Positions 2,462 through 40,337 of a stretch of DNA of 64,000 nt are shown here, piece by piece. Positions within the stretch are counted from its first letter, which is position 1; each line of letters begins with the position of its first letter. The notes below the pieces were generated by a model. That model was not told the origin of the DNA. It did not search any database and saw nothing but the letters and a program-made list of their open reading frames with translations. The translations under genes and the position numbers were made by a program. Origin of the DNA: Balanoglossus misakiensis (lineage: Eukaryota > Animalia > Hemichordata); contig CM082584.2 of assembly GCA_040954595.2 (NCBI GenBank), positions 3,848,110 to 3,912,109 of the forward strand, read 5' to 3'.

Positions 2462-2870
2462 TTATTATTATACATCTGGCACCGAGAACAATATAATTTG
2501 GCGTGCGCTAAAAAGGCGAGCAGAATGTTAAATATGCCTACAGTCTCAAGGCGCCCAAATTCACCGTGTATAGGTATGCACTACATGAATTAATGCGGAG
2601 GGTTCCATGACAACCTGACTCCCCAGAGTCCAACATAAAAAAAAGAAAGATGGCTGCTCACTGACAATGTGTACTGTGTTTCAGCTGAGCAGTTACGATG
2701 GATCGTACTGGCATTTTGACAGCCAAGTTACATGCAACACAAGAACTAACAGAGATGTAAGATGTATAATAATAAGGTTATTACGAAAATACCGCAAAGT
2801 ATGCACTCGGACATTAGCGCAGCGCATCGCCCTCTGCAACGCGTCGGGCGATATGCGGCGCTAATGTCCT
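2462..2870 (+). mobile_element. Non-autonomous Crypton-like element, 3'-truncated copy of the 32723-33177 family
   Basis: Collinear with 32723-33144: starts TTATTATTATACATCT, has internal AGATGTATAATAATAAGGTTATTACG at 2760, and the hairpin breaks at 2870. Confidence 0.7.
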
Positions 2871-2872
2871 TG

Positions 2873-3410
2873 TTATACACATACTGCTGTAACCTATAGA
2901 GTTCCGTAATACAATAATTCGTGGTATCAGAATAAAATAATTATTCAAATGCGTATGCAGAGTCCCATAGCACCAGGGTTATGGGGCGCATATTTGACCT
3001 TTGACCTCACAGCTGTTCAATGTAAACAATGATGATATTACACCCTACTCTGACAAAAATTGACATAAAAAGTACACAGGTGTTATTGAACTAAATTATT
3101 GGTGACCCAATGTGAAATAAGTCAAAATTGTCAATGAAATTTCAGCCGAAGGATTATGTGAACGAACGAGCGAGCTCAGGGGCGTAGAACGTTGTGCGCT
3201 AGACATCGGCATCTTGACAGCATAACCTGATGCGCGAGGTCAAGGCACGTTCGATATGCAGATTACTTCATGGCAGTGTCTGAAAACTAGATAGCAGCCA
3301 ATTTATCCTTTAACTTTCATGACGTCCGGAAAAGGTGTATAATAATAAGGTTATTCACAGAATATCGGGATTTATGTCTTCATACATCGTACGCTTCGGT
3401 ATTGTGAACC
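2873..3410 (+). mobile_element. Second Crypton-like non-autonomous element abutting the first (degenerate)
   Basis: Starts TTATACAC. Complementary internal site GTGTATAATAATAAGGTTATTC at ~3335, followed by a partial hairpin arm. Confidence 0.4.
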
Positions 3411-5055
3411 TAAGATAAAGGTTTTACTTTGTTTTGAAAACATATTTTACTATCTCTTATTTCAGACAGTTTTCTCCGGAAAGTACGCAAACCTGATCAC
3501 TTTCCTAGTCTGGGAATACCCATTGTACCGTCCTCTGATGTCATGGCATTATTTAACGTCGCTGGAGCCAAGCTGACAGATCAAGTAATTGAATGTTTGA
3601 TTGAAATTACACCAATTTTTGACGAACATTCAACAACTGGCAGTTGTTTACTGGACTTCTGTACTAATACTTGTAATTTCCGAGAAACAGCACCTCTTGA
3701 ACTTGTTTCCAATTTTCTCACTTTTCTGACCGAATCAAGAATTTCCATGAAGAAGGAGGAAAAATTATACATCAAGAACGATAAACATGTCCTATTTATT
3801 AAAAAATGAAGAGAAAGTTATCCCTTTTTATTAAAATAAAACCGAAAACATTTAGTTTAAGCTTTTAGTGAGTGAATTTCTGAGATGTATGTGGTTGGCT
3901 TTTCCAGCTTGTTGTTCTCTGTTTATTCTAATTGTGTGAAAAGTGCAGGGGGAGTTTGTCACAGAAACTCATTTTAATATCCACACAGACAGACAGACAC
4001 AGAGAATGGGAGGCCTATATGATGATGTGTACAATTAAATCATGTGACTGACTGCTGAGCCACTGATTGGATAGGCGAGAGGCAATGGTCTTGTACATTG
4101 TATAATAATCTAAACATTGCATAGAGCTTGCATGACGTTTTTGAAAAGGGGCTTGTTCCATACATGTACTTTTTAGATCATTTTATTCCTAGACATGTTT
4201 TTTTTTTCGTCTCTGTGATGTTTTTTTAGTGTCTTTCGCAATTTTATTATTCATTTTAGTGTTGTGTAAAGCGCATTGAGATTTTTTTCATGTAATGTGC
4301 TCTATAAGAAATAAATATTATTTTCATTATTATTATTATTACATCAGGATTTTTGAGTTCCAATCAATAACAAGAAGTGAAGGGTGTGGGTGTCCCCTCC
4401 CACATAAGAATATTTTGTAAAAAACAGAGCTTAAAGTTGCATTTGATCAATGAACTCAAATGCAAATGAACTCAATGTTGGGGAGGACCAATTTTACTTT
4501 TGCCACTCCACTTAAAGTTAATTAGCATCGGTGGGGTGGGGTGGCAAGTTCTCTGCCCGGGTACACTAGACAAACCAGCCAATAAATGAAATGTGGCGAA
4601 GAATGAAAGGTTGTGGGCGGAAGGGGTGTCCCCTTATCACATTAGAAATTTTTGTAAAATAAGGGGCTCGAAACTGCATTTTTGTGGACTCAAAAGCAGA
4701 AGTTGGGGGGGGGGCAAAAGTATGTGACCCCCCCCCCCCCTAAACATTTCGAAAAAAGATGACCCCCCACCACATTTGGATTTCAAAATTTAAGTGAACC
4801 CCCTCTGGATTTTGACGGCCCCAAGCCGTTAAAACTGAAGACAAAAATATATTATAGGCCACGGACAAGTGGAAATGAAAGCGCCACCACTGGTTGGCAG
4901 CGCATATTGTTGGCAGGGATATGCAAATTTACGAACTTTGACCCCGCTCTTGGACCAGCAACCGGCCAGGGCTGCAGTCGCCACCCGGCATCCGTAACAT
5001 CAACCACTCTTGTGGGCGTCTGCATTGTGGAGACTCTCGACTACACGCTTGCACC

Positions 5056-8000
5056 ATGATTTTCTTTCTTGTGCAGTTGTTCGCTGCCGCAGTGATATTA
5101 GCGGTGATCTGGATACGCATAAAGGGATTCGAATATGTAATGGTTCATCAGCGATGGATATTTGTCTGTCTGTTTCTTTTGCCGATGTCGGTGGTGTACG
5201 ATGTGATCTTTTATGTGCGGAACTGGATTGTATTTCAGCTTAGCAGTGCACCCAAACAACATGATATGCGTGTCAGAGATATTCAGCGCCAGGTATGTTG
5301 TGCATTAGATCGTCATCATGGTTAGAATGGTGGGCATAAATCCAGCTCTGAGTGGTGCGGGCTGTGTGTCTACGGTGACGCCTCCAGGGCATCGCCGTAG
5401 ACTCGGTCACACTCACAGCCCTGCCACGCAGGTTAGCGTCGGAATCACACCGAATGTGATTGTTTGGGTCAGCCTTCAATATACAGGTTGAATCAAGCTC
5501 TCACATTCAGTGTGATTCCGACGGATATCATAAAGGGCGTACTTTTCATTGATCATTATGAATATGGGTGTGTCTAAGGGCGACCCACATGTGTACGACC
5601 TTTGACCCCAGCAGACAATCGGTTATGACCTGGCAGAAGATTAAGGTCATTCTGAAAATAAAATTTCTATTGAAGATGTATTTGCTGCAAGTTAGCCCCA
5701 AAACAAAGGAAAGTACATGTAACCTGTAGCAATGTTCTGAAAGCATATCAAGAATGCATAATCGTCTACACCCTGAAACTGTACTCCAATACAACAACAT
5801 CAATCTGACATCTTATTATAGCTGTCAGCTTGATATTCAATATTTATGTTGACCTATATTTGCATTTTATTGATAATTTCCAACTGTAAGGTACGTGAAT
5901 GGAAGGCACAAGGATGTAAACAGTTGATGTGTACTGCTAGACCAGGCTGGATGACGGTTAGTTTACGTGTTGGCAAGTACAAGAAAACACATCACAAGAT
6001 CAAGGTCAATTTGGTGGACATTTTAGAAGTGGATACCAAACGTGAGATTGTCCGAGTTGAACCAATGGCTACAATGGGGCAGATCACAGCAACACTAAAT
6101 CCATTGGGCTGGACATTACCTGTATTGCCAGAATTAGATGATCTTACTGTTGGTAAGTAAATGTGTTTTCTTCAGGGGAGTTTGATATTAAAATATTAGC
6201 ATTGTGCCTCTTGGGTTGCAAAACAAGCACTGCTACAGTGTAAATTACGGAACACACATTATTGTTGTTATATATTGCTGCAGCTGTTGTCCTCGTATTT
6301 GTTATTTGGTAATGAAAGAAATCTAGAGTTGAAATATTAGAATCCAAAAAATCCAAACTATATTTCAACCCATAGCTAGTACGGTGTGTGTCCGTCTATA
6401 TCCATCCATCTGTATGTAAGTAAAGGTTATTGCAATACGTAATGGTGCGTTAATACGCTTGATATCACCACTCTTGGTCACCACAGTTGCAATAACTGAC
6501 TTATACCATGAATTTCGCGAGTTTTGGTTCGGTCAAAATTGGAGTCGTGGCTGCAGTCTGCTGGATGGGTGACGCCACTTCCGCCTCTAATGGGCTTTGA
6601 ATGCTCGAATAGCATCCGTGAAACTTAGCCAGCAGAAATTCCCTTGTGGAGTATCAGAGAGAGAGAGAAGGGTACCTCTCAACGTGAAGGGTCTGGGTTT
6701 GATTCCCAGTGCTGTGCATGCCTTTGCAGATTTTTTATCTAGTGAAAACCAAATTTGTTTGTGGCCAAGTAATACACTGACGTGTTTAAATCCATCATTT
6801 CTAAGAAAACTGGAAATGGGGCGATAACAAGAAACACAGTTTCTGATAAAGAAAGTGTGGCGATAACAAGTTAACACCACAGTTTCTAATGACGAGATGA
6901 TGGGTTATGGAAAATAAATGCATGGTTTTAACAAGGGCATGAGGCCAAGAGTGGTATAATAAGTAATGGTACATTGTATTATGTATATGTATGTGTGTAC
7001 ATGTATGGACGATGACACGCGTATGTGTGTCCATCCCAAAATCATGACAACGACTGCAAATATCACCATGATATTTTTTGTGTTAAAAGGTGCATGCTGG
7101 ATTGGACTTGTGGTTGTTGATCAATGTAATTTGTATTCCAATGAAGTTGTAAAAATATATAAGTTGAAAATGCAAGCCAGTTGGGACGTATCATATGATT
7201 ATCCTGTAATAGGGTTCATATGGTATTCATCCAGTGGGATTGCATCAAACATTATTCCTCCAATACCTGGTGATATTGGAGAGTGATAATTGAAAACAGG
7301 AGGCAGAAAAATACAATATTTGTGAAGTTCCATGAAAGTATCTAGACTTTCAGCAGTCGCTCTTGCCCTTCTTTGATTAAATTAGCGACTCAGGCACTAG
7401 GCTATATGTTACAGCAATTAGCACCAAAGGCCCGCGCAATCTCTGCAGGGTCAAGCGAAACAATGCCATGCGAAACAATGGCTCAAAGGGCAGCTGTCAA
7501 CAGTCTTATGAAAGAATTGCTGCAAGTACATGTATTCTGTAATAGTTATGCGTAATATTTCACTGACCCTTGCACTTCATGTAATCACTGTTGACTTTGC
7601 CTAATTCATTGGACTATCATATCTTTAGAAACTAAAGGTTACTACACTAAAGTAAAGTTTTTTAACCTAATAGCAAAGCATGCTTTTCTACATTAGTTCT
7701 ATTTGTGTTCATTGTATTATTGTGATCTGTTTTTCTTTCATATGAATGAAAGGAAACAGTGATAACAGAGTGGTCATTTTGTTGACTGTTTCATTTGGTC
7801 TTATTTCACAGAAATACAATGTTGCTATCTTTGTCATCTAGCAGCTTCTTTAAAGACATACTGATTAAAAGCTTTTGGCAAATACCGGGTAGGCCAATTT
7901 CATGACCCCCGTATGACCTGTATATCCTGGCATATTTTGTATGAGCCATTTTGAGTTCAAAGTCTGGAGCAGTCAACTCATCTTCGAAAAAAAAAAGCTG

Positions 8001-11000
8001 ATTTGGTAACCCATGACATAATTTCGAAATTGTCTCCTGAACCAGATTCAAAGGTTAAATATCAATTATACCCTGGCCCTTTTTATTTTTGTCTGCAACC
8101 ATATTGCAAGTGATTTTTGAAGTAGAAAAATCGTTCTTTTATATTGGGCTTTTTAGCTCCGCTGTCATTTTGGGGCAGCCAGTGTTTTACCAATTTTTGG
8201 TAAATAATCCCCAACATCCACTAATGCTTGAAACTACAGTGTAGGTTAAAAGACCCGTGTTTTTGCTTTAACCCTAACGCTGCCAAGTCAGTTGAAATTA
8301 TAACACACCATGCAGCGAACCCTCGATCGTGATTCGTCAATACGACGTCACGTGACCTGGGTCATTTCGAACTGTTGCCTAGGGCATCAGTTTGATCGGT
8401 TTCTGCCCGGACTGTTGCCCCGTCTTGATATAATTCCATTTTCAAACCAAAAGTTTCAAAAACTATCACCGCAATAGCAGCAGGACCTTCGGCCACCATA
8501 GGTAAATCCCCACGAAGGTAGTCTAGGCGACGAAAGCGTAACGCAGACGACACTACCGGACATTGTAGCAAAAATCTGACATTTGTAAACATGTCTGCCG
8601 CTACGAGTGCCAGTACTATAGATGCTGTCAAAACTTTGCCACGATTCGTCGATGTTTCTGAAGAAGACCTTGCTAGTATTGTCTCCGGGAAAGATGCTAA
8701 AAGAACGAAGACAATTATGAAGGGAGCTGTCAGTATTTTGGAGAACTATTGCGCTACTATTGGTACTACATTGGCCATCGTTGAACGAAATCGGATTGAA
8801 CTGTGCTTGCTACTACGTACATTTTATGCCAGCGTTCGGCGCACAGATGGCCAGTTGTACGCCAAAAAATCCATGATGTCGATAAGATATGGTCTCCAGC
8901 GACATTTCCAGAAGGTATCGGACATCGACATAATTAATGATAAGGAATTCAAGTCTGCAAATGAGATATTTTCGGCAATGATTGTGAAATTGAAGGCTGA
9001 AGGTAAAGCTGTCGTTCAACACAAGCAGCCAATCGCCCGGGAAGACATGGAGAAGATAATGTCGTCAACAGCACTCGATCAGACAACACCGCGGGGCCTA
9101 CAGAACAAGGTATTTATCGACATCATGATCTACATGTGCAACCGTGGCCGTGAAAATCTCCGGGACATGGAGAAAACCCATTTCAGCGTACAGACAGACT
9201 CAAAAGGCCTGAAATACGTATCATTTTCGCGTGATATGCTCACCAAAAACCATCGCGGCGTTGAAGACAGTGAAGCAACTCAGCAAGGGAGAATGTACGA
9301 GACACAAGATAAGTCTACTTGTCCGGTGACTTCCTTTGAACTTTATTTGGAGCGACTGAACCCACAGTGTACATCATTTTGGCAAAAACCTAAAAAGTGG
9401 TTTCAGATTGTTGAATCAGATGGGTCTACCGTGATTGGCTATGATAACGTTCCAGTTGGAAAAAACACTCTCGGGAACAAGCTCAAAACAATATCAAAGG
9501 AAGCCAACTGTTCCAGGGTGTATACGAACCATTGTCTACGTGCTACAACTGTAACAACGTTAGATTCAGAAGGGTTTGAAGCGAGACATATTATGAGTGT
9601 CAGCGGACATAAATCGGAGACAAGCATTAGAAGCTATAGCACAGTCGATGAAGAAAAGAAGAGAGAAATGAGCAGAGTTTTGTCAACGCGAATGCAAGGT
9701 GATGCCTGTCCCTCTACAAGTTCTACAAATATGGAAATTCAGCCTTTGGAAACCCCAAGCTCTCCCATACTGCCAAATTCACAAGAAGATGGCATACTTC
9801 GTGAACTGACTAACTCACCAATTTTTCCACTCAATATCCTGTCTCAGCAACAGGTGAAAAACAACCAAAGAAATGCAAATTATAAGTTTGAAGGATGTGT
9901 TGTAAATATCCACAATTATTGACACTGATAGCATGGTTACATGGAAATATCCAAAAAATTTCTGACTGTTGCAAATGTTGTTCTGTTAGAATTTTGAAAA
10001 TGTTAAAATAAAATTGTTTGTTCAGAAGCAACATACGTTTGTCATGCATGTGTTTGGATGTGGTGTGTGTCGTGTTTGGTGTGTTATAAAACACATGATG
10101 GCTGACATATTCGGGCAACAGTGTATTTTTGATGACCTCGGGACTGCCAGTCACACCAAAACAGTCTGTTTTCCCTCGGGCTACGCCCTCGGGAAAACAA
10201 GACTGTTTTAGTTGTGACTAGCAGCGCCCTCGGTCATCAAAATACACTGTTGCCCTCATTGTCAGTCATCATGTGTATACTGGTGTGATTTCCAGGGTGC
10301 CTAGAATCCTGGCTCCCAGGCCTGTTAGACTGCCAAGTGTGTTATTCAGTAGGGCCTATACAAGACCCTCAGACCAATACAGTGCAAACTAGTGCGATTA
10401 GGTACATTTTACAGGGGGCTCAGACTGCCAAGTGTGTCTAAGTACGTATGAGAGCCATGTCAAGACCGTGAAAATACGTTTTAGAAGAAAAATTGGCAAA
10501 TACGTATTTTAAGGGACTTGACACTCTAACCAGGTTTGACACCCAGTAGCATTAGGGTTAAGGCTAAGGAACACTGGTAAATGACTTGGGAACCCCGGTA
10601 AAACTCCTGCTATCTCCTAATATGACTGCATTGATATACCAAGGGCAACACCAGTAAAATGACTGGGGAACCCGGGTAACATTTACCTGGGTACTGCCCT
10701 TAACAAAAGACACTGAAGACTGTATCCACAGTCCCTCTACTGTGTTTAGACACACGGAAGGTGTGAGAAGCTGCCAACAATCTGCATGTATTTCACACAA
10801 AAAATCTTACTTGAGCTCAGATATGTATTATGGGAAGAATGATGGTCCTGGTATGGTGTGTCACTTGAACATACATCAGTGTCTTTCTACGCCACCCTTT
10901 GTCTTTTGTGTTCATTCAAAGATTATATGATGATATCCATTTTCTCTACAGGTGGATTGATAATGGGTGTAGGTATTGAAACGTCATCACACAAGCATGG

Positions 11001-14000
11001 TTTATTTCAACATACATGTGTAGCTTTTGAAATGGTACTAGCCGATGGTAGCTGTGTTAAATGCACCAAGGTAAGTGCTGACTTGTGTCAATCAGCTTGG
11101 AGATTGAGATATAAAGGCTACATGTAAGGGAATATGTTTATACATGTAGTTATAGTTGTTTATAGTTTAAAACCTCTGAATTTGTAACAGGGGGTCAATA
11201 AAATATGCAACTCAAACAAAAGTTCAAAAACTCAGCTTCCAGAAGATGTATGGTTTATAGGGGTTTTAACTTTGTCTTTGATGAGAAATAGGCCTCTGAA
11301 AAAGTCTTTACTGTTTTTCGTATTATTTTGCTTCCTGGCAAGGCATTAAGTGTATGTATTTGAAATTGATCAACATGAGACCAGATATACCAATGTAAGG
11401 TTAATCAAACATGACATGTATACATCATGAACGCTGACCAAATGAGATGCAAATGAGATGTCATTGATGCTTTTCGTGTCCAAAGTGTCTACAGTCTTAA
11501 GTTGATTGTCCTTTTGATACATATCAAGAATGACCAATGCTTAGTCACATAGGATAGATGAATTTTTAATATTTGCATGTTTAACTTATTTTGTTGCTAT
11601 AGCAGTTGAGTAGCAACAGTAAGTATACATGATACTATAGAGAGTGTGATGTAGTGTAGTGTAGTGTAGTGTGTTTTGATGTGGTGTGGTGTGTGGGGAG
11701 AGAACATGGCAAAGTACTTGTATTCATCATGATTTTTAGTCCCCAACTCTATAACAATACTGTTTTCACAAAAAATTATCCTTGTGGTTTGTAGGAGAAT
11801 ATTATCTCTAGTTAGGTCCCATCTGGTATATACCAGGGGGACTTTATGGAATCAGTGGTGTCTGTCTGTCCGTCTGTCTGTCTGTCTGTATGTCTGTCTG
11901 ACTGTCTGTATGTACGTATGTATGTATGTATGTATGTATGTATGTATGTATGTATGTATGTATGTATGTATGTATGTACATATGTATGTATGTGTGTGTG
12001 TGTATGTATGTATGTATGTATGTGTGTGTGTATGTATGTATGTATGTATGTATGTATGTATGTATGTATGTGTGTATGTATGTATGTATGTATGTATGTA
12101 TGTATGTATGTATGTATGTATGTATGTATGTTTCTTTGTTTGTTTGACCAATTGCAAGAAGGGACTTGTTGCTAAATGAATTATAAAAAACATAGAGCAC
12201 TTAGTGAAAGTATTTCTTGGACTCATTACAGGAGGAGAATCCAGATCTGTTCTATGCTGCACCTTGGTCTCATGGTACACTAGGATTTTTGGTCTCTGCA
12301 GAAATCAAAATTATTCCAGCCTACAAATTTGTGAAGATAGAATATACTCCAGTGCATAGCTTTGATGAGATTGTCAAAGTTTTCAGCGAGAAAGTGATGG
12401 CGAAACCTGGACACCAGTTTGTGGAGTGTTTAATGTACTCCGAAAATAAAGCGGTTGTCATGACAGCAAATCAGGCTACAAGTGCTGAACCTGACAAGGT
12501 AGGAAATTGATGATAATCTTAAGATAATCCAAGACATTCCAATGGACAATGCCTCAGGATAATCCTGTTCAGTTTGAATAATATCAAAATTACGTGTATT
12601 GGTGTAGCATTGCTATCAAATTGGGGAATGTGATGAATGATTCTTATCTGTGATGATTTCTTCATTTCTCTAAAGTCCACTGTCTACAATTTCTTACTTT
12701 CCCAATGTCACACTAATCTTGCAGTCTGTGAGTGAAAATTTCAGATATTTTATATTGTGATAATCATATACTTTTATCTGAATGCCAACATCATAAATAT
12801 ATGAACGTGCATGTTATCACTTGCTTATTTTGTGTAAAATTTGTCTTTCATATGTACCTATGGGTACACTAGTATGCACGTGTCTGTTTTAAAGTAAACT
12901 GTGTGTTTGTGAAACTGTCATAGAAATGCTATGCTGGCCGAATCTTTTACTGTCTCCGAGAAGCATGGCCCAAGATGGAATGATAAATTTGTAATAAATT
13001 TTCACACATGTTGTAGTAAATATACTGAACTGAAAGTTCCTTTAAATATCGCATGCAGGCTGAGTGAACAAAAAAATCACAGCAAGATTGTTTTTTAACT
13101 GAATGATCGTTTGTGTGGGGTTGTTGTTCATTGTTTTAGATAAACATCTATTGCCAAATGTTTCAGTCAAGTTCCAAACCAGCTTTGTATCAATTCAATT
13201 ATTCATAGGGACATCAATAGCTGTAATGACTGCAGCAGCTACTACTTGGTTGCTGATGTTGTTTGCACCCCTCCCCCCCCCCCCCCCCACAAATCCAGCC
13301 TCCCAGAGAAACTGACCAATCCCTAATATAGAGTCCTTCTTCTTCAACAGGTGAATTCTATCGGGAACTTTTGGAAGCCATGGTTTTTCAAGCATGTTGA
13401 ATCCTATCTGCAGACAAAAGGTGGCTTTGAGTATATTCCATTGCGTCATTATTACCATCGCCACACCAGAAGTATCTTTTGGGAATTACAGGTGAGACAA
13501 TCTCAACAAATTGATGATTGATATCTGATAAAATGTGAAACAGCTGAGATTTAAAGGGACAAAGTCTCTCTCTCTCTCGCTGCCCTTTTCCCATTAATTA
13601 TGTTTGATACAAGACACTGTTCATGTATTGTTATTCTACATGTGGATATATTGTGAATCAACGTTCAACCACACTCGCCTTCCATCCCGCTTGTAGACAC
13701 AAGAGTGAAAAAACTCGCCAAAATGAGTAATTGTATTCTACCATTTATTCATTTTGGGTGAGTTTTTACTCTCATATCATACAAGCAGGATGGAAGTTGT
13801 GTGTGGATGAACGTTCATTCACTACATAAACACATATACATTAACATAAACAATGTCTTGTATCAAACATGATTAATGGAAAAGGGGCAGTGAGGGAGAG
13901 ACTTTGTCCCTTTAATGGTTCTTGAACTTTTATTCATGAATATTCCAAATGCTTTGCTAACTAGTACTTGTAACAGTTTTAATTACATTTTGTATATAAA

Positions 14001-16541
14001 AACAGAATTTAGACAACTAGATTACATGTACATACAGGTATCGGTGTAGTGGCACCAACCAAATTTATTCAGGCAGACAGGTACTTGACTGATGTGGCAT
14101 ATCACTTTAATGTAGTTTACCAACATGGTTACACCAACACCATAATATCTCGTGGGCCTATTTGAGGGACTTGTATAAGCCCTACTGAATAACACACACT
14201 TGGCAACCTAACGGGCCTGGGAGCCAGGATTCTAGGCACCCTGGAAATCAAACCAGTTTCAACTGACTTGGCAGCGTTAGGGTTAAATCAAACGGAACTG
14301 TTCAAATTAAAGTCTGATATCTGTCAGTTTAAATGCTGACACTAGTGGGCGCTATTGCTCATAAAACCTCAAAGTCCCATCTTTATGCAGCTACAATCGG
14401 TTACAAAATGCAATAAAGGTACACTTATTCTGTTTTTCAGGACATCATACCCTTTGGTAACAACCCTGTCTTCAGATACCTGTGTGGCTGGATGGTTCCT
14501 CCGAAGATCTCACTTTTGAAGTTAACCCAAGGTGAAACTGTTCGACAACTGTATGAGAAACATCATGTAATACAGGATATGTTGGTTCCATTGACACGAC
14601 TTGGAGATTCTCTCAAATGCTTCCATCAACAGCTGAAAGTGAGTAGTTATGGAATTTATAATACATGTAGTATCAGTCAAAATATTGCTAATGAACATTA
14701 GGATCAAAGTGAGTATTTGAAAATTCAGACAGTGTATTAAAGGGACAAAGTCTCCCTCTCGCTGCCCTTTTTCCATTAATTATATTTGATACAAGACACT
14801 GTTTATGTTATTCTACATGTGGATATATGGTGAATCAACGTTCCACCACACACAACTTCCATTCCACTTATAGACCAGAGAGTGAAAAACTCTCCAAAAT
14901 GAATAATCCATCTCTACTGTTTATTCATATTGGCGAGATTTTTACTCTCATATCCTACAAACGGGATGGAAGTTGTGTGTGGTCAGCGTTGATTCACTAT
15001 ACATTGTATAGTCACAGAGAGTAGAATAACATAAATTGTATCTTGTATCAAATATAATTAATGGTAAAAGGGCAGCGAGAGAGAGACTTTGTCCCTTTAA
15101 AATCTGATTGCACTGAAATTGATCAATGTTTGTTTGTTTTTATGTCTGAATTACTATCCAGTTGTATCCACTTTGGCTGTGCCCTATGTTGTTGCCCAAT
15201 GTTCCTGGTATGGTTCATCCATCCGGGGATCAGGATGAAATGTTTGTAGATATTGGTGCATACGGAGAACCCAAACAGCCTGGCTTTGTTGCCAAGCCAA
15301 CAGTGAGAAATATCGAAGAGTTTGTACGAAGTGTTCAAGGGTAAGTAACACACTACCGTTTTACAGATTCATGTTGCTAGGCAATGGCCTTTATGGCCTG
15401 GTGGTAGAGACAATGTTGACATCAGGCTTAATAAAAAAAAATATGTGCTGTTACAATTACCTGGTTTTCAAAAATAGGGTAGGTAGGTAGAGAAATTTTC
15501 TAATTTTGCAATTTTGGTGCTTTGCTGTCAAATTGCCTAAGAGAGTGCCGATGTCGCTAATTTAGACAAAGAAAGCATGAACGACTGCTGTCAGTCTAGA
15601 AAAGAGTCTGTCTGTTTTCTGTCTGGGTCCAATTTTATTTGCCTGTCCATCCCTCAACAGTAAAGGCATATCTAGAACACACTGCAACCCATTAGTGCAA
15701 GTGAACAGTTACACTGACACTGATCATTCAAGTTTTTCACACAGATTTTATTAGAACCCCTTTACTAGCAAGATAATGGTTCACTTTAAGACTTCAATTT
15801 TCGAGGTGCATTATTACTACCGTAATCATTTCACCCAAGTTCCCTCTTTAGAGGTCCAACATTACCATAGTAAACAATGGGTTTGGACTCAAGTATGTGC
15901 TCCGCGCTCGGGATGTTCGATGGGTATGCTCTGGGTAGATGTTTACCACAAGATTGGTGGGACTGGGGGCATTGTCTAGCCTGTGACAGTGATAGGCTGA
16001 TTTCATGACATTATAAGATTTGCATGTTATATAGATATGTTGTTATGAACAGTCATGTTGCTATTGATGACATTGTTTAGAAACTACATGCGAATTGACC
16101 TTAGTACAAAGAATTGCATTTCTGTAATATGTGAAAGTGGTTAAGAGAGATTTGGGGTAAAAAGTCAATTTATAAACTCTGTGACTATAGTAGACATCAG
16201 ATTAGTTTTCTTTACAAAAATAACACCCAAAATTTCGGAAAATTCCCAAAACAGAAGAAATCACTATGGAATTAATCAAGTTGAATTTTTATACACAAAT
16301 TGATGTATAAATGTAAAATGGTACATCATTTATTGGTATGTGCTTAATATTTTCAATACTTTTTATCTTTTATTTTTATTTCTATAGTTTTCAAATGCTG
16401 TATGCTGATTGCTATATGACAAGAGAAGAGTTCAGGGAGATGTTTGACCATAGTGTGTATGACAAACTCCGAAACCAACTTGACTGTACCAAGGCATTTC
16501 CTGAGGTGTACGACAAGATATGTAAAGCTGCAAGACACTGA
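5056..16541 (+). CDS. DHCR24: Delta(24)-sterol reductase (24-dehydrocholesterol reductase)
   Basis: Exons 5056-5292, 5891-6152, 10952-11070, 12232-12498, 13351-13491, 14441-14638, 15162-15340, 16388-16541 join in frame. Motifs [64 protein letters not shown]-terminal [15 protein letters not shown]. Confidence 0.97.
6424..6965 (-). mobile_element. Degenerate Crypton-like non-autonomous element (hairpin at left end)
   Basis: GTTATTGCAA (6426) / TTGCAATAAC (6487) inverted pair. The adjacent TTATACCA (6501) is complementary to distal TGGTATAA (6952). Confidence 0.4.
8298..10279 (+). mobile_element. Crypton-type tyrosine-recombinase DNA transposon, apparently full length, in DHCR24 intron 2
   Basis: Ends defined by the interrupted MITE (GTTGAAA|TTATAACACACCA...CATCATGTGTATA|CTGG). 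Single YR ORF, ~190-bp terminal hairpin at 10091-10276, no RT/RNase H. Confidence 0.88.
8591..9922 (+). CDS. Tyrosine recombinase of Crypton type (DUF3504 / ZMYM-KCTD1-QRICH1-related), 443 aa
   Basis: Uninterrupted ORF. Catalytic set recognisable: R (CNRGRENLR), K (TKNH), HxxR (YTNHCLRAT), H (SGHKS), Y (SIRSYS). Also RRTDGQLY and CPV..FELY motifs typical of this family. Confidence 0.9.
   Translation: MSAATSASTIDAVKTLPRFVDVSEEDLASIVSGKDAKRTKTIMKGAVSILENYCATIGTTLAIVERNRIELCLLLRTFYASVRRTDGQLYAKKSMMSIRYGLQRHFQKVSDIDIINDKEFKSANEIFSAMIVKLKAEGKAVVQHKQPIAREDMEKIMSSTALDQTTPRGLQNKVFIDIMIYMCNRGRENLRDMEKTHFSVQTDSKGLKYVSFSRDMLTKNHRGVEDSEATQQGRMYETQDKSTCPVTSFELYLERLNPQCTSFWQKPKKWFQIVESDGSTVIGYDNVPVGKNTLGNKLKTISKEANCSRVYTNHCLRATTVTTLDSEGFEARHIMSVSGHKSETSIRSYSTVDEEKKREMSRVLSTRMQGDACPSTSSTNMEIQPLETPSSPILPNSQEDGILRELTNSPIFPLNILSQQQVKNNQRNANYKFEGCVVNIHNY
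11812..12145 (+). repeat. (TCTG)n/(TATG)n microsatellite preceded by a short inverted repeat; possible Helentron/DINE-like 5' end
   Basis: GTCCC-CTGGTATATACCAG-GGGAC hairpin, then ~280 bp of tetranucleotide repeat. Confidence 0.75.
13551..13915. mobile_element. Long-palindromic TTAA-flanked MITE (Kolobok-like), family A copy 1
   Basis: TTAA-AGGGACAAAGTCTCTCTC...GAGAGACTTTGTCCCT-TTAA, nearly fully self-complementary. Confidence 0.85.
14165..14286 (+). mobile_element. Fragment of the piggyBac-like MITE family
   Basis: Matches the 3' part of 36138-36450. Confidence 0.75.
14737..15100. mobile_element. MITE family A copy 2
   Basis: Same termini and internal sequence as 13551-13915. Confidence 0.85.
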
Positions 16542-19361: not shown

Positions 19362-22300
19362 TTAACAGGTCCATTTTTGAAAAAGATCCTCGTCCTTTTT
19401 ATTTGCAAATCTAGGAGCAAATCCAATTCTTTTGATTTCTGAGAAACCTTCAGACAAGTCTGGTTCTTCAAAGTTTTTCTTGAAAATGTTGAATGCCACA
19501 TCGGGTACTCGTCGCATTGCGCCACCACTTTGATTTTGACGGAACATGTTCATGTGTTGTGCCAAATCTCGCGGTGTGTCCAGCCAAAAGCAACGCACTG
19601 ATAAACCTGTCAAAACACAAAGAAGCAGAGCTACATGTACTTAAAAAGACACAAAGAGAACGCACTGTATGCCACTGTGCTTGACCTCAGGAGCTCCTAA
19701 ATCTACCCTTCCTCCCACAATGAACTTTAACCCTTTCACCGCCATGGATCAGTCCAAACCCATTGTTTTCTATGGTAAGGTTGGACCTCTAAAGAGGGAA
19801 CTGGGGTCGAAAGGGGTAAACATGACAAGTCTGAACCATTGAGTTTCTAGGGCAGCAGTCATCACTTATAAGGCAAATGCTGTGGCAGACCCAAACCCAA
19901 AATGTGATCTCAAGTATAATGGGTTTGTGATGACAGAAACACTGTTTGCTATTTGAAGCTATTCTGAAATTCGTCGTTTCTGAAAATTCAAGACACACAA
20001 TGGGTGCACTTCAAAATACAGAACAATTATACATTGTATGTGTGTGTTTTGTGTGTTAGTTTATGAGTCTTTTTAAAACTACAGTCAAACCTATGTTAGT
20101 GGCCACCCCTATATAGTGGTTGTGCACCTCTATATAATGGCCATTTTGTTACAGTCCCTGAGCAATTCACATGTGCATTAATTAACCTCTATATAAAGGC
20201 CACCTGTCTATAAAGGCCAGTTTAGGAAAGTCCCTTGACTGGCCACTATAGACATGGTTCGACTGTATACAGCTTAATTTCCATGTCATACCAGGGACAA
20301 TGATTCAGCGCACACTTCATACATACCATGCTTGTCTGCAATTCTGATATACTCCTGCCTGATGTACTTTGCTGGGTTGGTGTTATCTATGACAACACTG
20401 CGACCGGACTTGAGTGCCTCGTTTGCACCTTTCTGACATTTACTCTGTGTGCCCATTGTGTCTCTGTTGATCACTTCATAACCATTGGCTTGTAAGAAGG
20501 TCTTACAGAAAGTACTTTTCCCTGATGCTGGACTTCCTACCATGACAATCATCTCTTGTTTCTGTTGGAAATCATCAAATATGCTGCAATGGTGAATATT
20601 GTATTTACATCACTTGCTTTTGTGGCTGTTAATGTTTCTAAGACAGTCATTTTCAGACAAAAGAACTGAAATTACTGGTATTGAATCATGACAGAGTTTT
20701 TAACAATAGAAAGCCAGATGGTAATCTTCAAATATTTGGTTATAAAAATTAGGTCAGAAAACTTGAGCTATAAAGACACAATATGCAAAAGTGGAATAAA
20801 TGTTTGCTGCTGTCTAGTATCCAATACCTATCAGGGGTAGGATAGAAAGGGAAGTGGGGAATGGAAAACAGCCTATTGACAACCAAAAACTATAGTAATA
20901 GTTGACCGGAAAAATCCCCACAATTGACCACTGGATCCCACAGTTGACTCTGTGAAACATACAGTTGACTTCCAAAATGGCATCAAATGGCCATATGAGG
21001 GCGCTATCAGCAGAAACGTATCACAGCCCGTATAAACTACTTTTAAGTTAAAAATATTTGGCTAAAATTCGTCCCATCTAATGAGGATATGGTTCTGGAA
21101 TATCTGTCAAACTTCTTTCACAAATTCCATTCAATTTTGCTGATGGTGGAAAGGAAATGGAATTTGATGAAAATTAATCTGTAGGTAAAACTGTTGCACT
21201 CACACTGGAATGGTATGAAATATCAAGAGTCTTGTCTTTGCCTTTCTTCAACACCTGTTTGGGATTGACTGAGTGCCACTGAAATGGCGCCGGAGGTTCT
21301 TGAAGAAAATATTCTTCTGGAGTGTAGAAATCCAGAAGACAATTGGCGGCAAACATCCTGTCACTGCAGGAGAAGTCTCTCTTTTTCCCGGGCGCCCATT
21401 CCTTTGCTCGACCTGCTGCATCTCCGACATAATAGCTCGCTGAACGATCGACCTTGATGCCATGGTTACAGTTTTGTTCCATGTGATCAAACACTGCTGT
21501 GCTTGGCTTTCTGAACTGGTTCTGTCCAGTACACATGAATACCTGTTGATAGTCATGGAAAACAGTAAATTAAATCACAACCAGTAAAATTCATTAGGAA
21601 CATGTATAGTACTGCATGTTACCTGATTTGCTTTCAAGCAATATTTCTCACAAAACTCTCATATTTTCATAAAGCTGACTATCAGAAATTGGATATGCCT
21701 TTCAGCAGAAACCTTATTTTTGGACTTATAAAGGAATTCGACATAGAAAGCTTAATTGCCTAATGCTGAGCTAAATTATTTGCTCAGATTATTTTGAAGG
21801 AAGCAGTATTTTAATTCATGCGGCTTTATCAACATTATATTGTTAAAAAGACAATTTTGATGGACAGTCACTTTATCACTGAAATATGTTTCCTAAATAA
21901 AAACTGTCAGTATGGGACCATTGGCCAATTTGTTTCTGATTGTGAAATCTTGCTAAATTGCAAGATTTTTTCTTCAAAAAACCATATTTGCAACAGTTTA
22001 GACACATGTGTGATGGTGGATATTATTCTCCCTATAAGGTCTATATACTCAGAGTTCTCTTTGAATATGGCTAGGGATCAAGGGCTGCTAAATAATATTA
22101 TTGTAGGAAGTCTTCAAGCATACAGGTGCATGCATGCCCCAAATGTCTGGCTTTACAATTATGTCGAATTTGCAACTGCACAATATCTGTGTTGATCTCC
22201 TATATGTATTATATATTGTTATACAGATCATGTTTTTTCCATTTTTAGAATGCATCACCATCAACACATTATTAGCTGTGGCCAGGACAAAAACAAACAT

Positions 22301-23530
22301 AATCCATAAAAACAACAGTTGTACATGGAGATGCAGCTCTGCTGAGGTAGTGTATCGTTGCTTGTGCATGGCCAATTGGATGTGTGTAAGGTCACTGAGA
22401 GGTCACGTACGCTTAACACACACAACAACTCAACAGGTCTGCATCTCCATGGCAACTTGAAACCTTGCAACTAACCTGCACAGGAAAGCCCAACTCTTTT
22501 ATCATATGTTCACACTTTGAACAGATTTCCTTTGGTGCAACATGGTTCTTTTCGATGCCGGCTTGGTTGGTGAAGAACACAATCTTGTAACCTTCATCAT
22601 GAGCTTCTTTCAGTTTAATGGGGACTTCGTCAGACCACCACTTCCAATCTTTTGCACCTGTTTGTTATGTGATACATTTATTCATGTTACATTTATTAAA
22701 TATCTAGAAGTTTTTGTACAGGAGGTTGTGCATCACAGGTTCACAATGTTTATGATATGTGTATCAAATAAATATTTGGCTAGCGGCCATCATTTAGTTT
22801 TAGCGCAGGTTATTTTAGTCAGTGTTCATTCTTTTCTTTTTTGGGGGGGGGGGGCATGTGCCACACAGTGAAATTCTGTGATTGGTTAGATCTCAGTTTA
22901 CCATGGCAACTGTAGCTAAATTTGCATAAGTGACTGTATACAAAGCTACCAAATAATGCAGAAACCAGCAGGCATGGACCAGACTTCCCCTTTAATCAGA
23001 TTATTATACTGGTCTGTTTACGAGTGCCCGCAAATAAAGGAAACTGGGCCGAACTAGATGCTTTTGTTGACCACAGCCCCTAAATTACTACCGAGCTGTG
23101 CATGATGTGTGGATGTGTGTGACGCGCTCAGGTCAATGACCTTACACACACACCAAATAAACTGCCAGCACAGCTAACTTCCGGGTACGAAAAGTGGGCG
23201 GGGCAATTCTTTTACACCCACACCCAGAAAAATATTTGGCGCAGCCTTGCAGGTCGTACCTGTAGCAAACGTCCTTCCACTTTTTGTTGTTATCAGAGTG
23301 CTGTCGATATCAAATCCTGCAATTTTCTCTGATCCGGGTATACCGGTTCCATCAAGTTGAATGAGAGGGCCAAAATCGACTACGCCTTCATCAGTGAATA
23401 CAGGTGTCACTTTCTTTGAGGTTGGTTTATACCACGACCATGACGCCTCAAAATCGTCGAATGCAGGCACTCTTTTCTTTTTCTTCGCTTCGGTGGCTGC
23501 TGCAACGCGGCTGGATTTTCTTTTCGACAT
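19362..23530 (-). CDS. PNKP: Bifunctional polynucleotide 5'-kinase/3'-phosphatase
   Basis: Exons 23530-23260, 22657-22476, 21542-21204, 20561-20327, 19606-19362 join in frame. HAD motif FDIDSTLI, FTNQ, RKP, YVGDAAGR, DFSCSDRMFA; P-loop GSPASGKST; VIDNTNP; EEPDLSEGF. Confidence 0.95.
19727..19820. mobile_element. Short TTAACCC...GGGTTAA MITE; other copies or fragments near 15830, 31335, 34163-34580 (split), 35267-35358, 37437-37512
   Basis: Shared ~90-bp sequence with CCCTTTCACC / GGTGAAAGGG inverted ends. Confidence 0.7.
20080..20267. mobile_element. Tc1/mariner-type MITE
   Basis: TA-CAGTCAAACC...GGTTCGACTG-TA with internal GGCCAC subrepeats. Confidence 0.75.
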
Positions 23531-24049
23531 ATTCAAAGCCAGGTGCCAGGTGTTTTAAGGTTTCAAACAACTGATTGCAAGTTATAGAACTCAGTCGAGG
23601 TGTCTCTATTATATACACAAAACATATTGTACGACTGCTGCTATTTTTAGTAACATACATCATATTTGGCGAGAACGCATGCGCAGACACAATTGATCCG
23701 AGCAACAAGTCTTGACACATCCACTGATATCTGAGGTCATGCCCTCAGTAAAAGTTGTATCGACAGGATTTTTGACGGAAAGCGTGCTGTGACATGTTTA
23801 TTTCTAGGTCATCAGTGTATTGTGTTATGCACTAGGAAGCCAAATGTTTGACGTTCTCTCGTTGTTTGTTTACGATACACACATGGAGTAAATAATGCTT
23901 AATAGCTAAAAAAGTTGAGAATTGTTCGTTGTTTGATTTGACTCATGAAAATCTCAAATGGAAACCAGAACGACGTCACGCTTTCGAGTCCTATCGGCAC
24001 TATTAGCTCAGGGAATGGAGGAAATCATGGTTGTTGTTGTTGTTGTTGT

Positions 24050-30500: not shown

Positions 30501-33500
30501 TGTGTGATGAGTGTGACATGGCCTATCATTTGAACTGTCTAGATCCCCCATTGGAATCCATACCTGAAGTTGATGATTGGTAGGTCTATTTTGGAAGAAT
30601 TTTCACAGCTTTTAGATGATTGGGGCCCCTGGTATCTTTGTCATGTAGCAAGAAATGTTTATTAGACAAGGAGATTCCCCAGCCTCCAGTCTTGGGGCTG
30701 GTCTGCTTGTTGTCTTCAATAACACATGATACAATGAAAATGGTTTGAGCTGCATGTACACTTAAAGGGACAAAGTCTCTCTCTCGCTGCCCTTTTTCCA
30801 TTAATTATGTTTGATACAAGACACCGATTATGTTATTCTACATGTGGATATATGATCAATCAACAGTGGTGTGTTGTGTAACACATTGACAGGCCATATT
30901 GGGGTTACAGGAAAAATTCTAAGCATGCACATCAAGAATCGTTGCTGGAGAGACCAAACCGAGTGACATTACGTACAACAGAGCAATAGGTTCCCCAAAC
31001 AGATTGTGTTTTTCCCCTCCAATATGAGTGTGTTGCAGTTGGTCAAGGAATAAGGGAAGACTGTGTGACTAATAAATAGTCATGTACATACACATATATA
31101 TTCTTGTCAGAATTGAAGCAAATAATCTTCTTATCTTTTGCTTCTGGCCAGGTATTGTCCAAAATGTAAGAATGACTCGGTTGTCATAAAAGCTGGAGAA
31201 AAACTGAAAAACAGCAAAAAGAAGCAAAAAATGGCATCTGCCACATCATCAACGAACAGAGACTGGGGAAAGGTAATTATTGGTATGACCTACTCACTAG
31301 CTGTGTGCCTGTCATTCCTATTACTTTGCGTGCTTAACCGTTTCACCACCTTGGTTTGGTCCAACTCCATTGTTTTCAATAGCAGGGGGTTGAAAAAATT
31401 GAGGAAGGGACTATTGAAATGCAGTACATGTTTTAATCTCATTTCATAGGCTTATGCTTAGAATTTTGAGAAAACAATGTTGCAATATTGTCATTGATTG
31501 AGCTCTCATCCAATCAGAATGGTGAATGGTAGCATGATATAATATAATTTATGAAAGAGCTGTTCAAGTATCTTGAGTAGTAATCATTCACAATTTTACA
31601 GCAAGGGACAAAAATTTCATTATATAGGTACATAATTTGGAAAGAGTGTTGTTTTGATATAAAATGGTAGACAGTTGCTGACAAGGAATATCCCTTGATA
31701 ATTAATTATTCAAATGTGTCGTCTACCAATCCTTCGAACCCCTGACCATTGTAAACTGATTTGGCATAAATCTATTCAGTAAATCTTTCCACTACTTTTA
31801 TGGCAGGGCATGGCATGTGTTGGCAGGACTAAAGTCTGCACAATTGTTCCCTCCAACCATTTTGGAGAGATCCCAGGCACCCAAGTTGGACAGATGTGGA
31901 AGTTTAGAGTTCAAGTAAGTCCTGTTTGGCGTGATGATTGTCATGGGTGCATATTTTGACATACTAATTTGTGATTTTGTTTCAGTCACCAGTGTACAGA
32001 TATCTTTGAAGGATAGCGACTTTCAAGTTTGTGTTTTGTATGTCCATTTAAATCCTGCCATATCACAGTTTCAGTTTCAATATGATTACAAGGTCTAAAA
32101 AGTCAGGTTGCAGACATCATGTACACGATTGGAACCCTGGCTTATACTAGGGTTATTGAGTGCCCAATATACCCAAGTACACTCAAAGGGCAAGAAAAAG
32201 GCTGGCTGTCACAGTGCGTTGACATTTCAGTCTGTGTGGTGCATTTGAGCATATATAACCCCGATATTTGTTGACTTGATAGGTCAGTGAGGCAGGTGTT
32301 CATCGTCCCCATGTTGCTGGCATTCATGGACGTGAAAATGAAGGTGCATACTCTATCGTATTGTCCGGAGGATATGAAGATGATTTGGTAAGTTTGAATC
32401 AAATGTGCACTATGCTGTTTTATAAGTTTGTGTATAACCGCTGAGGCTCGGTCCCATATGCCTTGTTCTCACTAAAAGTTTCGACACCAGTGTTATGCCA
32501 GTGTTTACTCTCTACAAACACAAGGGATTAGCCCACAGAATCTCCGTGCGTCCACACACTAAACTTTTGGCCACTCTTTTGAAATAAACACCGTCTAAAT
32601 CGCCATGTTTAGCAACACGGCAACTAACAAAATTGAGGATGTCGAGGACATTACAGCAACATGTTTCAGTTTCTATACCTGCATATGCGTTCTAGACGAC
32701 TTTGTGACAGTTTTGATAATGTTTATTATTATACATCTAGTGCCGAGAACAATAGATTTTGGCGTGCAATAAAAAGCCGTACGGAACGGTACGTACGGAA
32801 CGCGCGTTAAATAAGTTTTAGGTTTCAAGGCGCCCCAACTCACCGTGTACAGGTATGCGTTGTTATGCGGACGGTTTCAAGGCGCCCCCACTCCAACGCA
32901 CGTGCGCACACGTAAACAAAAAACAAAGATGGCTGCTCACTGAGTCAACTGAGCGGTTTTCGATCGATTGTATCGGCATTTTTGGCGTTTTGAAAGCCAA
33001 GTAACATGCAAAACAAGAACTAACGGAGATGTAAGATGTATAATAATAAGGTTATTACGAAAATACCGCAAAGTATGCACTCGGACATTAGCGCAGCGCA
33101 TCGCCCTCCGCTGCGCGTCGGGCGATACTTGGCGCTAATGTCCTCGTGCATACTTTGCGGTATTTTCGTAATAACCTCATAGAAGTAAATGAATGTTAAT
33201 CCATAAATGGAAAATGCCTCAGCTTTTCGGTGATCGAGAGAACTTTCCGAAAGTTGGTAGCAGACAGAAGTGTTGCAGACCTGGCAAACTGCGAATGGTT
33301 TGAAAACCACTCGCGTCCAGTGTGATTGACTTCACAATGGAAACTGACCAAAGACAATGGGCTATACCTAATAAACATACCCAAAAGTCACTGCAGGGTG
33401 GCGCTTTTGAACGGTGTTTGTTTATCTTTGCGTTCTCACTGATTATTTGCGTCGGAGCGCTGGCCCAGCACTGGCCCTGACCCACCACCCATCGCTGTCG

Positions 33501-38962: not shown

Positions 38963-40009
38963 TAAGTCTTGTGCTGCTCAAGTGTTTTTTTTTTTTTTTT
39001 TGTACAACTGGTTTTGTGCTTGATTCCCCGGCACTTCACACAATGCTGGGGAAATATCTGTTCCGTGGACAGTTCTTGTTGTCGTTTATAGATGTTTATC
39101 TAATTTAGCTTTATTGGAAATGTTAGCGTTCACCTTGTGCCTTTCGCTGATTACCCTTACAACATTCATTATGCACTTCAAAGAGAAAACTTCTATTAAA
39201 CGAACCTAGCTTCCATCCATGCACGCCAGGACACACAGTCTCCGACCAGAAGAAGACTTGATGCGTTGTCGGTTACCAGAACGCTGCTCTCCAACCTGCC
39301 TCAGTTGGCAAAGTATGTAAATATTATATTGACCAACATTTTTGATTCACACAAATTTATATGTCTTCCTTGAATGTCAACTGGGAGGATGAGAGTAGAG
39401 CTTCTGGTAATTGACAATGCAGTCTCTTTTACTTTAAAAACACAAAAAAGCAAACTTTCAAAATGCTGCAATGCTTCCTAAATTTTGTGACATCAAGATC
39501 AGCAGAAAATATTTGACTATAATATCTACTGCTTATGCTAATCGACTGGATAAGAGACCTAGCTGATCATTCTTCTATTTTTATGAGAACTTTAAGTTGG
39601 TTATCTATGGTTGTTATCGTATTGTACTCTTATTTTCAGCAATGCCAGGATACATAATTTTTGAAAGAATTTTTTTATTTGGCAGAGCAAATAGGATAAC
39701 AAATTTGATTGTTTTTGAGTTTTCTATTTAGTTCATTTATCTATAGTTTCTAGATTTACATTATACAGACTGACTATATTTCAAACAACCCTTAGTTAAT
39801 GTTTCATACCAACAGTCTTTGTGTTATTGTAATGTGATGCATGCTTTTGTACTGTGGTGAATATTTCCAATGATCCAAAAAGAATCTCTCAGTTTCACCA
39901 AATGCACGACTGGCATCAAGCAAATCAAATCAATGCAAGCCTAAAAGCATTAGGCCAAAGAGTTGGTGTTTGAACTTGGCATCTTTACTTGCACACCAGA
40001 AATTTGAGA

Positions 40010-40337
40010 TTAAAGGTACAAAGTCTCTCTCTCGCTGCCCTTTTTCCATTAATTATATTTGATACAAGGCACCCTTCTTATCTTATTCTACATGTGGATA
40101 TAATGAATCAACGTTCAACCACACACAACTTCCATCCCACTTGTAGAGGCAAAATGAATAATCGGTGTTTACCATTTATTCATTTTGGCGGGATTTTTAC
40201 TCTCATATCCTACAAACGGGATGGAAGTTGTGTGTCGTTGAATGTTGATTCTCTATATATCCACAAGAACAACGGTGTCTTGTATCAAACACAATTAATG
40301 GAAAAAGGGCATCGAGAGAGAGACTTTGTCCCTTTAA
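40010..40337. mobile_element. MITE family A copy, in the probable UHRF1 3' UTR
   Basis: Same family as 13551-13915. Confidence 0.85.

Follow-up and report, generated by a model that had tools for sequence, protein, structure and literature searches.

A CryptonA-type element within a host repeat

A 64,000-nucleotide (nt) stretch of DNA from the hemichordate Balanoglossus misakiensis (contig CM082584.2, forward strand, positions 3,848,110 to 3,912,109), here called the window and numbered from its first letter, holds an element of ~1.98 kb on the plus strand (8298..10279) that is a CryptonA-type transposon by protein and behaviour. Its terminal hairpin and the layout of its ends, which suggest a recombination site read on one folded strand, are the subject of this report. 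The sole protein encoded by the element is a tyrosine recombinase (YR) of 443 aa, specified by an uninterrupted open reading frame (ORF; 8591..9922, plus strand). It matches DUF3504 and the phage-integrase fold (PF12012, 32.4 bits against a cut-off of 29.7; PF00589, 28.2 bits against a cut-off of 27.1). The likely catalytic residues are R187, K219, H314, R317, H340 and Y349, located in motifs 185-191, 311-319, 338-342 and 345-350, with individual roles assigned by analogy. The R-H-R-Y residues are intact, as in a transposon as opposed to a domesticated gene. The predicted fold (pLDDT 82) is closest to that of Cre (Z 16.9), and comparison of the model with the IntI structure 2a3v gives a Z of 12.8 and a root mean square deviation of 6.1 over 249 residues. 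At an E value of 0.001 or better, 379 relatives were retrieved, of which the named ones are from marine invertebrates. A search of viral sequences with the protein alignment gave 137 pattern matches, none of which was confirmed. A scan of prokaryote genomes gave three loci, which resemble animal-type DNA in bins and were not accepted as bacterial Cryptons.

The limits of the element are set by the repeat into which it is inserted. The flanks, 8262-8297 and 10279-10564, are directly joined in four other copies of this host repeat in the same window. Because the flanks join seamlessly in these four copies, the element corresponds to 8298-10279, with a single A that is common to target and element (8297 / 10279). 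Contigs from the same species agree: loose ends are found before 8297 and behind 10279, and empty-site joints connect 8296/8297 to 10279. From the empty-site copies and loose ends, the filled site equals the empty site plus the element, the overlap is one base, and the element is mobile and interspersed. There is neither a target duplication nor a pair of terminal inverted repeats (TIRs) at the termini, and the empty sites in the window hold no carried-over spacer. The split host repeat (8272-8297 and 10280-10557, span 8272..10557) was recognized by repeat comparison as a multicopy miniature inverted-repeat transposable element (MITE) with short inverted ends between TTAA sites, and is presumably piggyBac-like. 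Copies of this family with short inverted ends and TTAA flanks lie at 8272-10557, 14163-14292, 27891-28158, 33685-33809 and 36135-36451, and the target core is carried near the left end of the MITE. The possibility that the YR is a part of this surrounding MITE was rejected, since the MITE is bounded by inverted ends and TTAA sites of its own and the insert is missing from four of its copies.

The terminal hairpin and its TC/TC bubbles

The terminal hairpin (10091..10276) starts 170 bp past the YR stop codon. A sequence-only reading had described this region as a palindrome broken by symmetric TC/TC bubbles that folds on one DNA strand only. The palindrome is real: it is long and imperfect, and its folding energies of −74.2 kcal/mol for the top strand and −76.2 kcal/mol for the bottom strand (z of −15.1 and −17.5) lie far below those of shuffled sequences, with 0 of 200 shuffles matching on either strand. 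Folding on one strand only is an overstatement, as both strands fold in the energy model and differ by 2.4 kcal of ~77. In an energy-free alignment of arm to arm, the two bubbles that had been quoted are present, at 10138..10139 (opposite 10230-10231, 49 nt from the right junction) and at 10176..10177 (opposite 10189-10190, four pairs below the loop). A third bubble, which had been overlooked, lies 23 nt from the right junction, at 10111..10112 (opposite 10256-10257). The arms are interrupted by ordinary single mismatches and bulges as well as by TC/TC. On the minus strand, the hairpin thus presents three GA/GA tandems and a purine loop. The loop itself (10182..10184) reads GTA on the minus strand here (TAC on plus). 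The proposed C(GNA)G triloop holds for this copy and reflects a tendency across lineages, with a G..A bottom loop in 17 of 18 apex matches (copies that are not independent of one another), but the majority loop of the family contigs is ATA.

Both features have precedents in DNA. A GA tandem flanked by a pyrimidine and a purine (Py-GA-Pu) is the context reported for sheared tandem G-A pairs (PMC10085684), C(GNA)G loops are described as very stable (PMC3201870), and sheared A-A loops are named in the reference list of the latter source. At the other end of the element, the left 120 bp (8318-8420), which are kept in gene-less derivatives, contain short motifs like those of the hairpin arms, namely CCCTCG at 8320 and CTGTTGCC twice.

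Strand bias and spacing across recombinase lineages

Loci for comparison (prefixed L) were chosen by protein, as the best 80 of 277 confirmed, and a quick tree served only to group them. In a ladder scan, 20 of the 80 proved to have a hairpin downstream that contains one or more TC/TC loops, comprising 16 of 49 loci with at least 700 bp of downstream sequence and 4 of 31 shorter loci; these are spread over about a dozen branches of the quick tree. Fifteen hairpins, one per lineage and with largely different stems, were then hand-picked: 13 from the YR-ORF-linked set (including the degraded L001, which has no ORF), that of a gene-less element in the window, and that of L067, which was judged to belong to a neighbouring element. 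Of their 38 clean 2x2 loops, 32 have TC/TC on the top strand and hence GA/GA below, and the reverse orientation does not occur; without the two ORF-less hairpins, the count is 28 of 34. The Py-GA-Pu context is found in 56 of 64 GA steps. An unbiased scan of hairpin tips for 12 opposed dinucleotides, across the 80 loci and the window, returned TC 18 times, GA once and the other ten together 20 times, with a G..A loop below in 17 of the 18 TC matches; these matches are not independent, since L007-L011 and L075/L077 are copies. The position of the bubbles is also restricted. Although the arms are 67-95 nt long, 8 of 13 hairpins have a bubble 22-23 nt away from the right junction, and 7 of 13 have one at 49-51 nt. 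The mismatches are thus not random decay, as the bias recurs over YR lineages with different stems and the distances from the crossover are fixed. Blocks of GA/GA at these two distances likely serve also as shape marks that show the protein which strand is folded.

These counts bear on two other explanations. In the first, a classical double-stranded circle (Goodwin; Tn916-like) is the mobile form, the palindrome serves as an array of duplex accessory sites or extrudes into a cruciform, with TC/GA steps that either form direct-repeat motifs or merely make a perfect palindrome less toxic. The double-stranded circle is the standing model (PMC3212892, PMC13565253), and in the second source, a 2026 review, the Crypton mechanism is described as not shown and such a circle is assumed. 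Read on the duplex, the bubbles are indeed direct repeats of a short motif, and a fold like those of Cre and Xer would suit this mechanism. Moreover, a cruciform exposes the same bottom-strand hairpin, and for this reason a part of the data cannot separate the classical circle from a folded single strand. However, duplex motifs need not face each other exactly, yet they do so in 32 of the 38 loops while the stems covary (two-sided changes in 20 of 31 consensus pairs, using RNA parameters on related sequences in a rough alignment). A palindrome could be broken by any mismatch, yet only one of 144 double mismatches is used, and no carried-over coupling spacer was seen. The classical circle is consequently rated as quite unlikely.

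In the second explanation, the structure acts in RNA, as a 3' untranslated region or antisense hairpin, or is the product of neutral palindrome decay. The short distance from the stop codon to the hairpin is what an RNA element would show, and RNA also forms tandem G-A pairs. The strand bias speaks otherwise. In L082, a distant relative (25% identity) on a contig with a bacterial label, the hairpin (1985-2150) lies upstream of a frameshifted ORF and its sense strand bears the GA/GA, whereas close relatives have GA on the antisense strand; the bias therefore follows the end layout and not transcription. Gene-less derivatives retain the hairpin. The single mismatches show no clear wobble bias (15 A-C versus 10 G-T of 49), and a search of Rfam returned two weak matches, far below their gathering scores. 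Taken together, a role in RNA or mere decay is very improbable.

In L019, nested related elements were observed (3400-3510, 955-1100), one of them within a hairpin arm of another at a site fitting the target rule described below. The tip of L019 is inverted relative to those of L038, L045 and L059, which is either an artefact or a real flip.

A mirrored left end and unequal cores at the hairpin base

The sequence-only reading passed over two features at the base of the hairpin. The first is a mirror copy of the left end: segment A (8298..8310) is a 13-bp exact inverted match to A' (10077..10089), which abuts the hairpin base, such that the order of the ends is A-ORF-A'-hairpin. Mirror copies were also found in other loci, with lengths of 24 bp (L001), 21 bp (L003), 22 bp (L006), 11-12 bp (L007-L011) and 14 bp (L012), as well as in L004 and L019. 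The second feature is a pair of cores of unequal spacing. The internal core at the start of the inner arm (10087..10097) reads YAN, 5 nt, NTR (Y, pyrimidine; R, purine; N, any base). The right core at the end of the outer arm (10270..10282) reads YAN, 7 nt ending in A, the junction, and then the NTR of the target. The target contributes YAN and a 6-nt spacer ending in A on the left (8289..8297), as read from the empty-site comparison.

This arrangement recurs beyond the window. In each of the 17 right ends read, the outer arm finishes at the junction with YAN plus 7 nt, and the terminal 7 bases are constant among copies (5 of 5 for L007-L011, 2 of 2 for L075/L077). Of 12 left junctions with enough flank, 10 show YAN followed by 6 nt of which the last is A (chance of 0.046 each), and right flanks begin with NTR in 14 of 16 (chance of 0.15). 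L040 and L081, which were examined once this junction rule was set, also fit it. For L082, the left end was not found within the available flank. From these sequences, the target resembles a YR core whose spacer is 6 bp long, and the element is placed at the right edge of this spacer with one base of homology. The recombinase likely cuts at the base of the hairpin, not at its tip. A protelomerase-type reading, with a cut at the palindrome center, was dropped, as the conserved core and the junctions lie at the base.

The junctions also suggest which strand is cut. In YR geometry, the right edge of the spacer corresponds to the bottom-strand cut. The insertions lie at the right spacer edge and would therefore reflect a bottom-strand cut, on the same strand that carries the GA/GA blocks. 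The duplex cores lack the 6-bp spacing of the target, with 5 bp inside and 7 bp where the ends are joined; a hybrid of the two arises only in the folded strand. A two-strand exchange without spacer homology should leave scars at both edges and carry spacers along, and neither a scar at the second edge nor a carried spacer was seen in the junctions read. As far as the sequences go, the junction geometry fits a one-strand exchange.

A further alternative is that folding only joins or restores the ends and starts second-strand synthesis, after which a double-stranded circle integrates, as proposed for DIRS elements. Together, A' and the adjoining inner arm form a reverse complement to the ends once these are joined, which is the same logic as that of the DIRS internal complementary region (ICR). 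The ICR is required for the mobility of DIRS-1, which makes single-stranded intermediates (PMC7192593). A scan of viral sequences for the tip motif found two short caps, neither of which had a long stem or a YR that could be recognised, and such GA/GNA caps without a nearby recombinase favour this joining role. Similar caps are known from the single-strand initiation signals of plasmids. Against it, a duplex circle would present a 7-bp core to a 6-bp target that shares a single base with it, and exchange of two strands should scar both spacer edges, whereas all junctions read lie at one edge. The ORF scan of the element, moreover, found no reverse transcriptase and no second ORF of at least 100 aa on the strand of the YR. 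A DIRS-like joining step followed by duplex integration is thus rated as unlikely.

Gene-less derivatives and a second family

Family copies were examined through same-species contigs from three runs (X1-X3) of one sample. These show an abundant gene-less family that retains both ends with the whole hairpin: internal deletions join 8398-8436 to 10071-10074, A' is retained, and the summed contig depth, which is not a copy number, is about a thousandfold greater over both ends than over the ORF. Position 10184 is T wherever the contigs read a base (14 contigs in X1, 12 in X2 and 3 in X3), and the remaining X3 depth at this position is a 12-bp deletion. Variants at 4% or more occupy seven listed rows, which include no TC position out of the six, and position 10101 is restored to a pair in the contigs. 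Young copies share features by descent, and conservation among the contigs alone therefore shows no selection.

A second family in the window, judged from its sequence, has different stems and the same end design as the Crypton element. Its gene-less member (32726..33181, plus strand) has A, A', the 5/7 core, two clean GA/GA tandems and a GCA loop. A damaged copy (2465..2900, plus strand, end approximate) has an intact left end and a truncated right arm, and a third related internal site starts at ~3334 with its hairpin broken.

The remaining features of the window lie outside these families. Exons of an FAD-linked oxidase gene, presumably for a sterol delta-24 reductase, are found on the plus strand on either side of the Crypton element (5834-6160 and 12208-12510), and the element therefore lies within an intron. 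A second MITE family, with long inverted ends, occurs at 13541-13916, 14727-15100, 29246, 30752, 37697 and 40000-40337, and accounts for repeat families D7, D9, D12-D14, D16 and D18. Exon-like ORFs on the minus strand (20286-23554) presumably resemble polynucleotide kinase/phosphatase.

A proposed folded-strand mechanism

Based on the strand bias, the spacing and the junctions, the element probably moves as a folded single strand, with a one-strand exchange on the bottom strand that replication would resolve, as for integron attC sites. In this mechanism, the bottom strand would be bared, most plausibly at a replication fork, and would then fold with the help of the purine loop and the sheared G-A blocks, while the top strand would be left with floppy T-C bubbles. 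The stem base would form the hybrid 5/7 core, which the recombinase would pair with the duplex left junction, and both bottom strands would be cut at 5'-YAN/T. Cutting would recreate the precise empty site and set free a circle of single-stranded DNA, with a copy staying on the top strand. In the circle, A' would pair with the left end to complete a two-armed site. This folded site would then exchange one strand with a duplex target, and replication would resolve the product.

Several observations weigh against this proposal. The predicted fold of the recombinase is nearer to Cre than to IntI. A hairpin was found in just 17 of the 49 testable loci (16 from the ladder scan and L040 from a folding scan), leaving 32 of 49 without a clear one. 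Eleven of the hairpin-less loci form one clade (L025, L026, L030, L031, L033, L034, L036, L037, L039, L042 and L043); their protein match ends just past H-x-x-R, before the last His and Tyr, which suggests that these are dead or domesticated genes. The bottom strand is favoured in 12 of the 15 hairpins, by at most 4.8 kcal in the energy model, which may undervalue sheared G-A pairs. The loop of the high-copy family on the bottom strand is ATA and not GNA, and other non-GNA loops (ACA, AAA and 7-nt) occur in L038/45/59, L055 and L003. Short-read contigs can flip or perfect palindromes, and L007, L014, L019 and L055 look affected.

The end layout has exceptions as well. Searches upstream in L075, L077 and L081, and downstream in L082, revealed no mirror copy. 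The junction rule is missed on both sides in L012 and on one side in L019b, L006 and the 33-kb element, and L040 and L081, which fit it, are close kin of L029. Junctions were placed by eye, with copy divergence fixing only those of the window, L007-L011 and L075/L077; an automatic core finder gave the wrong register at the right end in the window and at several loci. Finally, no circle junction or strand-flip joint was present among the joints listed (15/36; 4/4), although contigs drop rare forms, and missing circle junctions therefore say nothing about absence.

In a broader form, for which the balance tips slightly in favour, animal CryptonA elements would be a eukaryotic YR class that copies via a folded single strand and reads a structural code, not a sequence: sheared G-A blocks at fixed distances, a purine loop, the 5/7 core and the end mirror. 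The integron strategy would then have been invented independently, and many unclassified GA/GA hairpin repeats would be derivatives of such elements. If true, this would provide a eukaryotic counterpart to integron-style, structure-directed recombination, would explain the seeming lack of terminal repeats in animal Cryptons, and would offer a means of classifying orphan hairpin repeats as well as a hint at the ancestry of the domesticated DUF3504 proteins (ZMYM, QRICH1, KCTD1). The short element, its unbroken ORF, exact ends and empty sites, and the abundant gene-less derivatives supply defined substrates that would separate the folded-strand and duplex-circle models.

Comparison with known systems

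The element resembles CryptonA in its single DUF3504 YR ORF with catalytic residues kept, its lack of a terminal TIR pair and of a target duplication, and its many deletion derivatives. Kojima and Jurka describe animal Cryptons as having no terminal repeats (PMC3212892), a study of Glomhopper reports none either (PMC13465315), and Eulor5/6 have been filed as old Crypton derivatives (PMC5753468). Unlike the elements in these CryptonA papers, for which no terminal repeats or conserved nucleotide features are reported, the present one has a target rule and a conserved structural code of mirror copy, 5/7 core and GA/GA hairpin. The literature searched contained no account of such ends; Repbase/Dfam notes, papers behind subscription and the supplementary files of PMC3212892 and PMC13465315 lay outside the search and may mention palindromes. 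Crypton F and S elements of fungi and oomycetes have 4-6-bp direct repeats at both termini, whereas a single shared A is found here.

Transposition by a YR without spacer homology into AT-rich targets is also the habit of Tn916 and Tn1549, whose integrases leave a variable coupling sequence at one end. Here, neither end carries such a sequence in the copies compared, and the terminal 7 nt are constant. With DIRS elements (PMC7192593), the element shares a eukaryotic YR and an internal mirror of both ends (10077-10097 region). It differs in having no reverse transcriptase or RNase H and no long inverted terminal repeats, in being 1.98 kb with one ORF, and in a mirror of 12-24 bp plus a hairpin arm that is 2 nt different from the joined ends.

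A recombination site folded from single-stranded DNA is known in two bacterial systems. In CTXphi, the duplex recombination site is built from two inverted segments of one single-stranded circle, and the site proposed here would likewise be assembled from inverted segments of one such circle. Unlike CTXphi, the element has no phage genes and no Rep protein, encodes its own recombinase, and uses loose genomic targets instead of dif. The folded single strand of CTXphi attP, with XerC/D, is named alongside integrons in PMC3458562, and for attC, one-strand exchange with replicative resolution has been shown (PMC3458562). The bottom strand of attC is favoured by its GAA tip and by unpaired parts that are rich in purines (PMC5027507). 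The present hairpin is similar to attC in being imperfect, in its little sequence conservation, and in that the strand used has a GNA-type tip and unpaired parts rich in purines. As with attC, micro-homology is confined to the crossover and the junctions are as for one exchange. In contrast to attC, there is no GTTRRRY/RYYYAAC core and no cassette array, the core being YAN-5/7-NTR, and the strand is marked by symmetric GA/GA tandems in place of extrahelical bases. The hairpin is also part of an autonomous transposon with its own recombinase. On the favoured reading, the element works like attC, yet it is neither an attC site nor a DIRS element.
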